DNA of 24,408 nt. It comes from a virus (lineage: Duplodnaviria; Caudoviricetes). The stretch is taken from IMG/VR virus record IMGVR_UViG_3300048886_001448, positions 1 to 24,408 of that record; one strand, given 5' to 3'. Both the position numbers and the translations under genes were made by a program. The notes beneath the pieces were generated by a model. It ran no database searches. It was not told where the DNA came from and saw nothing but the letters and a program-made list of their open reading frames with translations. Of this stretch, positions 3,038 to 17,785 are shown piece by piece (positions within the stretch are counted from its first letter, which is position 1; every line of letters starts with the position of its first letter).

Positions 3038-3467
3038 TGGTGGAGGCGGTGGGAGTCGAACCCACGTCTTTAGAGCCATCTGCTCAGATATACTACAAGC
3101 TTAGTCGGTGTTAATACTCGCTTGGCATGTCACCGACAAACGGCCTACGCGAGGTTGTAAGGAATATAATAAATTTATACTGGGCTCCCTTACGTGCTCC
3201 AGTTTTTTGCTCGCTGTCGTCGCCCTATCTCTTTAACGAGCATCCGGAGTAGGACGTGGCGGGACTTATGCCGCCAGTTGGAGAGACTCCTCTTCAACAT
3301 AACCGAACTGAGCGAGAATCTCGTCAGCTTCAGCTACTGAAGGAGCGAACTCCATGTCAACGTTATCGTTGGCATTTATGTTTTTTTGATAGATGTTTTA
3401 AGAGGCCAACCATCATCCTCTGCTTGCAATCTGGCGTAAGAATCCAAATCGAATCCAGTACGCCCCC
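3038..3467 (-). ncRNA. ssrA: tmRNA (transfer-messenger RNA), 430 nt
   Basis: 5' end GGGGGCGUACUGGAUUCGA and 3' end GACGUGGGUUCGACUCCCACCGCCUCCACCA. Acceptor stem GGGGGCG/CGCCUCC carries the G3-U Ala determinant and there is a T-arm. Tag ORF 3373..3266 follows AUAAAU and ends in LAA-stop. Confidence 0.96.
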
Positions 3468-14437: not shown

Positions 14438-14465
14438 ATCATAACACACCTTTTTAGTATGTCAA
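14438..14465 (-). promoter_or_regulatory. Sigma70-like promoter TTGACA-N16-TATGAT
   Basis: Consensus -35 box and TGn-extended -10 box, 9 nt before ATG 14428. Confidence 0.8.
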
Positions 14466-15079
14466 ATCATATCTTGTAGTTCTTCTGATTTAATTTTTTT
14501 AAACAACATCTCCCTACCTCTGTGGTGAAGGTTGATAGCTGTTTGTGTGCTGGTTTTTATCTTTTTAGCTATGAAACTCCACGTAGGCTTTGTTTTTTCT
14601 TTATAATTTTCAAAATATCTTAGTTCAAAGACCTTGGCTATGCGTTTATCCTTAAGGTTATTTAAAATATTAAAAATATATTCTTTGTCGTATTTATTTT
14701 TAGATTCTTGATCGTAAATTTGCTTAGCTTGGCTGTCCATTACGACCTCCAATAGGTCTTCTTCGGAGGATATTTGATGCTTACCGCTCGAATTAATTAG
14801 TCCAAGACAGTGGTATTTCGTGCAGTTTCCTAGCCATGTCGAAAATTTTGTTTTTCTATTTGGCTTATAGGAGGATATTGCTTTGAATATTACAAAGTCT
14901 TTATCGTTAAGAAGGTCTTGCTTTTTAATTCCCTTTGAATAAGCTACGGGAATGTAGCGTTGACATATCTTGTAGAAAAGTTTCTCGTGTCTGTCTCTGA
15001 GCATTTCGTAGCTTTCATTACATCCATCTTTTTTAACCCTTCTTACTAAAGTATTATCTGCTGGCGTTATCTTTTTCAT
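14462..15079 (-). CDS. RNA polymerase sigma factor (sigma70 family, regions 2 and 4)
   Basis: Region 2 'DLL...IFKAISSYKPNRKTKFSTWL' and region 4 'VFELRYF...TWSFIAKKIKTSTQTAINLHHRG'. Confidence 0.85.
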   Translation of the reverse strand: MKKITPADNTLVRRVKKDGCNESYEMLRDRHEKLFYKICQRYIPVAYSKGIKKQDLLNDKDFVIFKAISSYKPNRKTKFSTWLGNCTKYHCLGLINSSGKHQISSEEDLLEVVMDSQAKQIYDQESKNKYDKEYIFNILNNLKDKRIAKVFELRYFENYKEKTKPTWSFIAKKIKTSTQTAINLHHRGREMLFKKIKSEELQDMI

Positions 15080-15683
15080 GGTCTAAGAGCCACTTCAGAA
15101 AGTTATCAATGTAACTTTCAAGCTCTTCTATTCGACCATCCTTAATAAACTCCCATTCGATTTGAAAGTCACTTTTTTTCTTTATTTTAGGATCATTTCT
15201 GGCTTCTTCAGAGTTAGCTGGATCCTTGAATTTCTTAACAAACGGACCCAAATCAGGCTTGTGTAGGTTTTCAGAACAAAGTTCATATTGAGAAACGTGA
15301 ATCAAAACCCCACCAAGCTCTCTTTGAATCCAGTCTGCTTCGTCATTCTCGTAATCATCATACCTTATGTCAGTAATAATTTTAAACTTAGAATTGTCTC
15401 CCTTAACTACTTTATCATGGAGTTGCTCAATCCAGTGCCTGCCTTTCGACATCTTGCGCTTGGTTGTTCCGTGTGCAACGAGGAGTGGTCTAATGATTTC
15501 CTTTTGATCTCTGTTACAATTAACTGAATCAATATGGTAGTGCATTCTGCACCACTGATTAACTTCTCTTTTCAGTTCGTCAGCCAAAGAGTATTTCTCA
15601 CAGGGGATTCTTTCAGAGAGAAGATCAAAGAAAGTATCTTTTCCTGCTCCTGCAACACCGGATATACCTATTATCTTGTTCAT
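15054..15683 (-). CDS. Deoxynucleoside monophosphate kinase (phage dNMP kinase type)
   Basis: Motifs 'IIGISGVAGAGKDT', 'SLADELK', 'RPLLVAHGT', 'IITDIRY..ENEA'. Confidence 0.85.
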   Translation of the reverse strand: MNKIIGISGVAGAGKDTFFDLLSERIPCEKYSLADELKREVNQWCRMHYHIDSVNCNRDQKEIIRPLLVAHGTTKRKMSKGRHWIEQLHDKVVKGDNSKFKIITDIRYDDYENDEADWIQRELGGVLIHVSQYELCSENLHKPDLGPFVKKFKDPANSEEARNDPKIKKKSDFQIEWEFIKDGRIEELESYIDNFLKWLLDHEKDNASR

Positions 15684-15724
15684 ATATTATATAAAAATTA
15701 TTTAAATTTTAAATCTAACAATCT

Positions 15725-16135
15725 TCGAGTATGACTGCTTATCCTTTAAATTTTTCCTCTGAGCTGAGAAAGCCTGAAGGGCTTTCGAGATAAGAACATA
15801 GCTGTCCACTTGGAAATAAATCTTACTCTTAACAAAGCCGCTTTAGTCCGTCGCGTTAACCTCTTTTAGTCTCGCTCGCTGACTTGTTAAGCTATATTGT
15901 TTTTTGTTTCTGCGGCGGGACTTTTCTTTTGACTGCTTATCCTTTTTCCTCTTGAGAGGATGAAGTTTCTAGCTTAAGTATTGCTACTTACATTGGCCTC
16001 AACTGTCGCTTTTTCCCGAAATAACAGTAAACTTATTAGGTTTAATTGGCCAAGGTCTTTTTACGGGCCTGTGGTCTCTTATGAGTTGAAGTGAGGGTAA
16101 CCCTCACAAGCTATTCACCGCTAACAAAGAACTGG
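15725..16135 (-). ncRNA. Candidate ~410-nt structured non-coding RNA with two tandem modules
   Basis: No ORF of 60 aa or more within it, an upstream promoter, many hairpins including a GCAA tetraloop on the minus strand, and a 16-bp direct repeat. Ends are approximate. Confidence 0.55.
15732..15945. repeat. 16-bp direct repeat TGACTGCTTATCCTTT at 15732..15747 and 15930..15945
   Basis: Exact copies 198 nt apart, each adjoined by TTTTTCCTCT. Confidence 0.9.
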
Positions 16136-16139
16136 TGCT

Positions 16140-16167
16140 AGTATAAAACAACTTTTACGAAAATCAA
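16140..16167 (-). promoter_or_regulatory. Sigma70-like promoter TTGATT-N16-TATACT firing into the non-coding region
   Basis: Hexamers read directly. The nearest downstream CDS start is about 450 nt away. Confidence 0.7.
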
Positions 16168-16174
16168 GTTTTTT

Positions 16175-16891
16175 TTACCCCCACTGAAACTTCATGGGCT
16201 GGTGAGATCTCAGGTATATTTTGAAGGTAACGAAAGAATATGGCGGGATGTGCTGGCCTTGCGCTTCATCGCCATAAGCCAACTCTGGAGGACAGGGGAC
16301 AATGCGGGTTTCTCCCAGTCTCATTTCGAGCAAGGCTAATTCTAATCCTAGGGGCCAGTCTTGCCCGTTGCTTTGCTCGTGACCCGAAAGGAATTTACAT
16401 GTTTTCGTTTGCGGGACCATAAAGGAGCATTGTTTCATTTGAGAAATATAATTTTCTTCCGAGCCTCCGGGAGAAGGATGGAGTATTGGCAGCCACTGTG
16501 TCCAATCACAATTAATCCGTTGGTGGAGCTTGTTCGTGCTACTCGTTACTTCGCTCATCTTTGGACCTTTTCCCTCCGTAATGATTTTAGATTTTATTTT
16601 AATAATTTTTTGCGCGTCTTCTATTTTTAAGTTCGCAAGAAGTCGGCCTGTTTTTGGGTCTTTTTTTACATTTTTATACTCTTCCCATTCTTCACTTATT
16701 GCGTCCGTGCCAGTCGCTTCTGCTTCTTTTTTTCTTTTTTGAAATTCCTCCCAATCATCTAGTTGAATTTCTTTAGCCATGTATTGGCAGCCCATTGCTT
16801 CGCATTCACGGCTGCCTACCTTCATCGGACCATCGCATTCGGGGCACTTATAGTACCTTACGCCATTGATGCTGTAGCTTTTGCCGCTCAT
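16175..16891 (-). CDS. FKBP-type peptidyl-prolyl isomerase domain with N-terminal zinc-ribbon-like motif
   Basis: N-terminal 'CPEC...CEAMGC'. FKBP motifs 'IITEGKGPK' and 'GLELALLEMRLGETRIVPCPPELAYG...IPPYSFVTFKIYL'. Confidence 0.8.
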   Translation of the reverse strand: MSGKSYSINGVRYYKCPECDGPMKVGSRECEAMGCQYMAKEIQLDDWEEFQKRKKEAEATGTDAISEEWEEYKNVKKDPKTGRLLANLKIEDAQKIIKIKSKIITEGKGPKMSEVTSSTNKLHQRINCDWTQWLPILHPSPGGSEENYISQMKQCSFMVPQTKTCKFLSGHEQSNGQDWPLGLELALLEMRLGETRIVPCPPELAYGDEAQGQHIPPYSFVTFKIYLRSHQPMKFQWG

Positions 16892-17442
16892 TTTTTCTTC
16901 TTTGGTTTACTCTCGTCGGCGTCATTAGGCGGATCTTTTTCGGGCGGCGGTTCCTTAACATCTTCCGAAAGACTAGAGAGGTGTTTTGCTGTCATGGCGT
17001 CAAGTGGTTCTAGGTCTTTGCCAGATATAATATTTTCTTTCTCCATTACTCTTTGTTTGTACCACTGTATAACATGAACAAGGTTTCTTACGTCTTTTTC
17101 TTGCACGTTAGAAACAGAGCACACATCAGTTTGGTCTTCCAATAGATCGCAAAATTCGTTTATTTCAGCTGCGATAAACTTCGCCGTCCACGGCCCGACT
17201 TCAACGCTTTGTTGAAAAGAGTCCATGGGTTTTTCAAGAATGTAATACTTTTTATCTGCATAATCTTTAGAGCAAAGCAAATTTATTTCTTCTAGCTTTT
17301 CTAGGGCTATCCTGAAGGCTATAGTCGTAGCTTCCTCATCCTCCATAATAGGAGCAACCTTCCTTAAGTCTCTACCTATTTCAAAATTGTCGGCTTTTTC
17401 AAACCAAGTAAATAGCTCATTTGATGCGTCTTGAACTGTCAT
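16888..17442 (-). CDS. Hypothetical protein
   Basis: 184-aa ORF with its own promoter, coupled to the FKBP gene through ATGA. Confidence 0.75.
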   Translation of the reverse strand: MTVQDASNELFTWFEKADNFEIGRDLRKVAPIMEDEEATTIAFRIALEKLEEINLLCSKDYADKKYYILEKPMDSFQQSVEVGPWTAKFIAAEINEFCDLLEDQTDVCSVSNVQEKDVRNLVHVIQWYKQRVMEKENIISGKDLEPLDAMTAKHLSSLSEDVKEPPPEKDPPNDADESKPKKKK

Positions 17443-17524: not shown

Positions 17525-17785
17525 ATGGATACAAAAGTTAAAGTTTCTAGAAGAGGACGTCCACCAGTAGACATTACTTGGCCTGACGTGGTTTTTACCG
17601 CTCAAGACGTGGTTGACACTGTTTCAGAGAAGATTTCTCGCGTCACTATTCACAGTAAATTAAATAAGGCTGTAGATGTCGGCGACCTAACGGTGGTTGG
17701 AGCATCTAAAACCAAGAACGGTAGACCTCGGGTAAAATACATGAAAACAGAGGTCGCACCGGTTTGTGGGGCCGATGAACAATAG
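17525..17785 (+). CDS. Small DNA-binding protein (winged-HTH-like, two GRP motifs)
   Basis: Motifs 'RRGRPP', 'FTAQDV...ISRVTIHSKLNKAVDVGDL', 'GRPRVKY'. Confidence 0.65.
   Translation: MDTKVKVSRRGRPPVDITWPDVVFTAQDVVDTVSEKISRVTIHSKLNKAVDVGDLTVVGASKTKNGRPRVKYMKTEVAPVCGADEQ

Follow-up and report, generated by a model that had tools for sequence, protein, structure and literature searches.

The gap between the FKBP gene and the dNMP kinase gene of an uncultured phage is, judged by comparison of sequences, the gene for a real, uncatalogued non-coding RNA that represents a new family, and its transcript, about 420 nt long, is predicted. Comparison of the homologues demonstrates conserved helices, two homologous arms and a joint change of both arm copies from lineage to lineage. 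The reading that we favour, tentatively and at somewhat less than an even chance, is that the RNA is a stand-alone ~420-nt pseudoknotted scaffold whose two equal arms are offered to a partner that is itself two-fold.

The predicted RNA gene and its homologues

The source is a large uncultured aquatic tailed phage. The window, by which we mean the whole stretch of 24,408 nucleotides that was analysed, is a 24-kb fragment of it (16% complete) with genes for DnaB, a RecA-like protein and ribonucleotide reductase, a tmRNA and three tRNAs; a related 109-kb contig, G001 (64% complete), also encodes primase, Pol III alpha and tail proteins. No relative was found among 50,697 annotated phages by blastn and tblastn. 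The RNA gap is flanked by the FKBP gene and the dNMP kinase gene, after which comes a sigma-70-family gene.

16140..16167, minus strand: sigma-70-type promoter TTGATT-N16-TATACT, recognised by sequence, with a similar site in homologues
15715..16133, minus strand: predicted non-coding RNA of about 420 nt; 5' end placed from the distance to the promoter and from where conservation begins, 3' end placed approximately
15054..15683, minus strand: dNMP kinase gene (PF21448), downstream of the RNA
14462..15079, minus strand: phage sigma-70-family gene (PF04542, just below cut-off)
16888..17442, minus strand: conserved ORF upstream of the RNA; its product is predicted to combine a winged helix with further helices and is no more than a candidate partner

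Several features of this neighbourhood deserve mention in their own right. Two conserved divergent genes meet at a strand switch (window 16888-17442 and 17525-17785). The product of the former is acidic, with a predicted winged helix, and it outpaces core genes in divergence (48-50% versus 75-86%, G009 against G008/G011); its model has a pLDDT of 92, its winged-helix matches are weak, with none at E<=0.001, and its Atlas matches lie below 0.9. The latter encodes a small protein with an RGRP motif. The phage tmRNA (window 3038-3467, minus strand) has an unusually long, acidic tag, and G001 and G003 carry similar tmRNAs.

The initial annotation had read the gap as a promoter-driven, structured minus-strand RNA of an unrecognised class, and the sequences that it quoted all occur on the minus strand where it had placed them. 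The promoter-like site at 16167..16140 scores 9/12, which alone is not above chance (9 sites versus 5.9 expected in 2.8 kb); a similar site lies just 5' of the conserved start in 26/35 representative homologues, a count made without a shuffle control. Conservation begins 6-8 nt past the promoter-like site and stops shortly after the second of two repeats, while flanking sequence and neighbour genes diverge around the conserved RNA. No ORF longer than 37 aa lies wholly inside the gap, and the homologues differ throughout by 1-2-nt indels. Folding energy of the single sequence does not favour a structured minus strand (z -0.69; plus strand z -2.18). Structural support for a minus-strand RNA comes from covariation.

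Homologues were collected from motif scans of viral and metagenome contigs, followed by an iterated profile. The 185 full-length loci reduce to 78 distinct sequences, of which 77 were kept, corresponding to ~33 effective sequences at 85% identity; a chance match (L138), a locus with an internal deletion (L303) and partial matches were left out. Scans of this kind are biased towards RNAs that retain the motifs scanned for. A synteny scan with the sigma alignment, independent of the RNA motif, supplied 56 further loci. Nineteen of these carry the RNA (three on contigs already in the set), yielding nine new distinct sequences, and 37/56 have no strong RNA match at the slot. Each of 11 longer contigs holds one copy of the RNA, and the gaps 3' of the sigma gene proved to be coding in the six loci examined. 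Among GTDB genomes the motif scan returned 70 matches, none of them upheld by the profile. When 151 genomes from the phylum to which G012 belongs were searched with a model of the 5' domain, none matched; this search had no positive control, and the phylum is not known to be that of the host.

Rfam 15 gave nothing in the gap at the gathering threshold, with three chance fragments the only matches at E<=10, and no match at E<=5 for the RNA of 11 divergent loci; the RNA thus fits no Rfam 15 family, be it GOLLD, ROOL, OLE, raiA, RNase P, tmRNA, 6S, SRP, introns or riboswitches. In the literature consulted the RNA is not described, within the limit that part of the supplement to a large phage RNA screen (PMC10690425) lay outside the comparison, so that a fragment may be among its candidates; six supplementary files of that screen contain none of five motifs and not the one contig prefix sought. 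Another paper, PMC10085705, is unrelated in the part considered.

The conserved fold

The fold was derived from mutual information on an anchor-based alignment, together with pair counts over 77 sequences. Its elements are as follows.

16116..16121 with 15912-15917, minus strand: long-range helix P2; 6/6 pairs in 75/77 sequences, 21 strand combinations
16108..16111 with 16008-16011, minus strand: pseudoknot A, GCUU / AAGC; paired in 77/77, 77/77, 77/77 and 76/77
16091..16107, minus strand: variable hairpin H1; absent in L208, L503, L505 and L508
16071..16074 with 15806..15809, minus strand: pseudoknot B, CCAC / GUGG; 77/77 at all four pairs
16064..16067 with 16015-16018, minus strand: kissing helix C, CCCG / CGGG; 77/77
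15993..16053, minus strand: three-way domain of helix D, hairpin H2, helix E and the conserved loop AUUUCGGGAAAAAGC
15975..15990, minus strand: hairpin with GNRA loop, optional; close relatives show compensatory changes, several lineages lack it
15918..15922 with 15845-15849, minus strand: pseudoknot F, AGUCC / GGACU; 73-77/77 paired
15829..15890, minus strand: second core, in which helix G encloses a AGCUAGGCU..GGCC-type stem and the 3' strand of pseudoknot F

Covariation supports these helices individually. Pseudoknot A, with UA, CG and GC variants, contains the top-ranked pair of the alignment, and pseudoknot B, which joins the two halves of the RNA, changes on both sides at two pairs. Helix C occurs as UCCG:CGGA in two sequences and as CUCG:CGAG in L517. 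Over the 77 sequences pseudoknot F appears as AGUCC:GGACU (35), AAUCC:GGAUU (15), AGUUC:GAACU (15), AGUCA:UGACU (7), AGUCA:AGACU (4) and AGUUC:GGACU (1). Helix G (15883-15890 with 15829-15836) is paired in 68-77 of 72-77 sequences per position, with 4-6 pair types and two-sided change at all 8 pairs.

An independent MAFFT alignment of 22 diverse RNAs, including the nine found by synteny, gave the same picture: the 30 named pairs are 93.7% paired and 20/30 show two-sided change, values that 0/500 shuffles reach on any measure, and a slid-partner control is 33-42% paired. The shuffle ignores relatedness, the structure was derived from overlapping data, and G-U pairs are frequent on the minus strand. 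The nine new sequences retain the helices with new pair types. Covariation among relatives, which the initial annotation had named as a check, is present.

The individual frames drawn in that annotation fared less well, being crossed or replaced by four pseudoknot-type helices and one long-range helix. It had closed its first module by UAGCUU/AAGCUA; pair 16109:15974 forms in 28/68 sequences and 16109:16010 in 77/77, with three pair types, so pseudoknot A takes the place of that closing helix at 16109. The helix AUAUAGCU/AGCUAUGU, proposed to close the second module, is not a conserved pairing either (43-88% per pair, in a part where the alignment is loosely anchored). Its named hairpins do exist; the GAAAGCC/GGCUUUC hairpin is confined to the clade of the window.

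A total of 56 columns are at least 95% conserved, and they cluster where the crossing helices join. This clustering, in phages that carry tRNAs and a tmRNA, would suit a ribozyme or its relic with a rearranged, group I intron-like or RNase P-like core, the arms serving as substrate mimics or docking sites, and short motifs in the RNA presumably resemble conserved elements of both classes. In group I introns P7 is bulged, the elements P, Q, R and S succeed one another in that order, and the guanosine-binding pair is a fixed G-C. The five base pairs of pseudoknot F form a simple helix with no bulge, the would-be guanosine-site pair switches between C-G and U-A, the resembling motifs are out of order, and there is no Rfam match; a group I intron was rejected on these grounds. 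RNase P RNA has a P4 pseudoknot with a bulged U between two conserved regions. Here that P4 pairing is missing, since AGUCC covaries with GGACU and not with a CUUA-like segment, and with no Rfam match RNase P RNA was rejected as well. Neither the window (E up to 10) nor the 11 divergent loci (E up to 5) matched any ribozyme family in Rfam, and the arms fit the phages' own tRNAs and tmRNA no better than those of others. We regard a ribozyme or its relic as clearly unlikely. Likenesses to group I and group II introns, RNase P, tmRNA, the glycine riboswitch, the hairpin ribozyme, type III antitoxins and the tRNA D-loop did not hold across lineages. A retron, DRT or DGR RNA was discarded because no reverse transcriptase occurs among 22 window proteins or 86 ORFs of G001 (64% complete).

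In L505 and L508 the small stem-loop that follows AGCUA in the second core has given way to a large structured insertion, which indicates that the core tolerates extra domains.

The twin arms

The RNA has two homologous arms, whose exact 16-mer the initial annotation had noticed.

15930..15973, minus strand: arm 1, with GCU..CYU, a small hairpin ending in CUCA, an A-run and repeat copy 1 (15930-15945)
15732..15802, minus strand: arm 2, the homologue of arm 1; its hairpin (15768-15786) is clade-specific, its linker variable, and it includes repeat copy 2 (15732-15747)

The duplicated unit is an arm of ~45 nt that comprises GCU, CYU, a hairpin ending in CUCA, an A-run, and AAAG followed by about ten variable bases. 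In the window the two copies share an exact 16-mer, 198 nt apart, just as had been reported; with up to 3 mismatches allowed it has 3 matches in the window versus 0.47 expected, a number reached by 1/100 shuffles. An exact internal repeat of 11-18 nt is present in 65/77 RNAs and exists as 19 lineage-specific alleles. The longest run common to both tails averages 14.6 nt within an RNA versus 6.9 nt (maximum 12) across lineages, and an RNA's own second tail is the unique best match in 18/19 lineages. Identity covariation between the arm copies ranks among the strongest signals of the alignment. The repeat was found in 9/9 new sequences, with several new alleles, and in 15/15 rechecked ones; single mismatches between the copies occur in L328 and L206.

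The CUU/CCU element and the 3' strand of the hairpin also change jointly in both arms, and the linker of arm 2 varies freely. Such a discontinuous match would favour selection for one ligand over block copying, and short-tract gene conversion could contribute to the identity of the copies. Arms that differ between lineages and are yet identical within each RNA suggest that the RNA grips two copies of one partner. They are lost in 10/77 sequences (two lineages) and degenerate in two, including L196, which indicates that the arms are not essential to the core.

No partner for the repeat emerged inside the RNA. None of 16 segments fits its own arm over the arms of other lineages (best p 0.047, uncorrected), no covarying partner for the repeat was found within the RNA, and a consensus fold of 23 arm-1 sequences contains 0 pairs. 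By eye, the repeat pairs locally within its own arm in some lineages, a pattern that is not general, so it may not be wholly free. Elsewhere, nine contigs, all partial, contain no further exact copy of the arm sequence, the kind of target that an RNA guide to phage DNA would need, and comparison of the arms with the phages' own tRNAs and tmRNA gave no lineage-specific fit. No phage gene evidently tracks the presence of arms when G009, with arms, is set against G008 and G011, without them; nor does the winged-helix ORF, which occurs at loci whose arms are lost and is lacking next to some RNAs that bear them.

Individual loci show further peculiarities. In L329 the arm sequence recurs exactly a third time, over 11 nt (455-465) at the 3' strand of helix G, and partial likenesses to it in L299, L346 and L354 hint at an older internal duplication. 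In L266 and L214 the first codons of the dNMP kinase frame lie in arm 2, which still equals arm 1.

The exact repeat at 198 nt, the homology of the arms and several GGA motifs in the window had prompted the proposal of two tandem ~200-nt RNAs processed at the repeat, or of a CsrA/RsmA sponge. Helices P2, B and F span the first repeat, which makes the RNA one fold and not two separable modules, and the spacing of the repeats ranges from 185 to 242 nt across RNAs. GGA is found in 6/19 arm alleles, at 2 to 10 GGA per RNA. Both proposals are very improbable. Sponges of the CsrB/RsmZ type display repeated single-stranded sites and titrate a dimeric protein. The repeated sites of the 420-nt RNA could likewise titrate a dimeric protein; unlike the sponges, it has two sites of 11-18 nt that are lineage-specific and mostly lack GGA, on a pseudoknotted core.

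The operon slot and the proposed role

The next gene is the dNMP kinase gene in 49 elements, the sigma gene in 16 and another in at least three (hand count), and a tRNA-Gly stands between the RNA and the next gene in L169. In most cases a same-strand gene starts 14-149 nt past arm 2, and in 5/35 representatives (L266, L214, L225, L268 and L340) the open frame of the kinase begins within the second half of the RNA. In 4/35 a separate promoter-like site precedes the next gene. The same operon occurs without this RNA in related phages; in L549, for example, the upstream ORF is directly followed by promoter and kinase. In L286 (2-886, minus strand) a truncated Cas12b-like ORF (NF033949, E 9.5e-23, below cut-off) lies ~350 nt past the RNA.

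These surroundings raise the question whether the RNA is a cis-acting leader of the early operon of kinase, sigma and replication genes. Such a leader would influence RNA polymerase or translation by antitermination or attenuation, and the arms would be binding sites in repeat or alternative partners for pairing. A same-strand gene always follows, with ~30 kb of nucleotide and replication genes downstream in G001, and no general intrinsic terminator was found after the RNA in 35 representative homologues; together with the closeness of the next gene and the kinase frames that open inside the RNA, this speaks for a leader. In a single lineage (L174, L267, L282 and L363) repeat copy 2 pairs with a pyrimidine run downstream of it, and the hairpin so formed shows a compensatory change in L282; this too speaks for a leader, though the pairing is not general. 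Lambda nut and HK022 put are phage antitermination leaders that directly follow an early promoter and open a long operon. The 420-nt RNA has a like position after its promoter, and its 5' end is in part boxA-like; it differs from nut and put leaders in being several times larger, with a varying downstream gene and a role that is predicted only.

16125..16132, minus strand: boxA-like 5' GUUCUUUG, which may instead pair with a segment near 15900-15907

The boxA consensus GYTCTTTAANA was derived for gammaproteobacteria, according to the part of PMC5725501 used here, and GTTCTTT equals its first 7 positions, although this consensus may not be that of the host. GTTCTTT stands at the 5' end of 20/35 homologues and is absent in 15/35, so the match is partial in extent and in distribution; as far as it goes, it speaks for an antiterminator. 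The variable downstream genes, the tRNA of L169, the separate promoter-like sites and the operons that do without the RNA all weigh against a leader, a reading already offered by the initial annotation. We hold it to be unlikely, and the main rival of the scaffold.

Another role, related to the origin option of the initial annotation, is that of a replication primer like ColE1 RNA II, whose purine-rich arms would form an R-loop before an AT-rich unwinding tract. The GC-skew check bears on this point. The cumulative minimum lies 0.4-2.7 kb upstream of the RNA in 8/11 contigs (partial, 16-64% complete), at the upstream divergent gene pair and not in the RNA. This position does not put an origin in the RNA, nor does it speak against a primer. 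An AT-rich tract does occur 3' of arm 2 in the window, two genes nearby have predicted winged-helix products and one belongs to DUF736, and DnaB, primase and Pol III alpha are all encoded by the phage. The local skew of the window follows the coding strand, however, and arm 2 overlaps coding sequence in some lineages. A primer appears quite improbable.

More distant phages have two other promoter-led structured elements at this slot, neither of which is matched by the 5'-domain model of the 420-nt RNA; Rfam returned only tRNA/tmRNA or chance fragments for them.

L511:2860-3290, L512, L515, L516, L520:2965-3370, L524 and L556: family 2 loci
L522:240-700 and L528, minus strand: family 2 loci
L523:2625-2900, L550:1290-1600, L554:2650-2950 and L538: family 3 loci

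Family 2 is a structured element of ~430 nt with covarying helices (two-sided change in 23/33 predicted pairs, nine loci aligned) and two A-rich arms that have a short sequence in common within each RNA. It precedes the kinase in most loci and lies within the opposite operon in L522 and L528. Family 3 is an element of ~290 nt (four loci aligned) with two CU(C)AGGGAAAAG-like elements; the string UUCUCAGGGAAAAG is common to it and to arm 1 of L299. Both families have two A-rich GAAAAG-type elements near the 3' end. Three different large RNAs appear to replace one another at this slot in a widespread group of aquatic phages. In L532 (2430-2950) a long promoter-led gap with a strong terminal hairpin lies upstream of the operon; it was assigned to none of the three families.

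The scaffold with two equal arms accounts best for these observations in our view. The RNA would be transcribed from its own host-type promoter as a stand-alone molecule, its gene being independent of the downstream gene though often co-transcribed with it. The pseudoknotted core would hold the arms exposed for recognition from outside. The partner would be two-fold, whether a protein dimer from phage or host or another RNA molecule, the latter on the model of the GOLLD and ROOL cages, and the lineage-specific arm sequence would follow a lineage- or host-specific partner. The likely purpose would be to tie up or organise this partner early in infection. A bolder version takes the arms as interchangeable labels on a reusable core, which would show one 11-18-nt sequence twice and so capture a host-specific nucleic acid or defence protein bivalently. 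The three slot families look unrelated, yet all have a pair of A-rich arms towards the 3' end, and in this version they would be alternative chassis for one job; we think this unlikely.

By its size, covarying helices, pseudoknots, phage origin and lack of an ORF, the 420-nt RNA fits, from its sequence, the description of a large ornate phage RNA. GOLLD and ROOL, in the parts of the reports drawn on here, are large, multiply pseudoknotted phage RNAs, often near tRNAs, with kissing loops (PMC12286853, 10.1101/2024.12.08.627333), and their covarying long-range helices proved partly intermolecular (PMC12286853). Measured against those parts, the 420-nt RNA is likewise phage-encoded and pseudoknotted, with a kissing helix and covarying long-range helices. 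It differs in length (about 420 nt versus >800 for many GOLLD RNAs), in matching no Rfam family, in residing in a nucleotide and replication module and adjoining a tRNA in one lineage only, and in having twin arms that change in concert, a feature not found in GOLLD and ROOL as described there. The OLE RNA is, in the portion of the same report consulted, a dimer that presents protein sites (PMC12286853). Like OLE and the raiA-motif RNA, so far as those accounts go, the 420-nt RNA is conserved, complex and non-coding; OLE and raiA are bacterial chromosomal genes, whereas it was not found in the bacterial genomes searched and has no Rfam match.

Neither GOLLD nor ROOL has a known function, one reason being that their sequence points to no partner. 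In the RNA described here the concerted arms, in at least 19 versions, would mark the contact site and could serve as bait for pull-downs and in arm-swap tests, and its four crossing helices make it a compact target for cryo-EM. If the bolder reading, with arms as interchangeable labels, is true, the RNA would represent a new class of programmable bivalent phage RNA.
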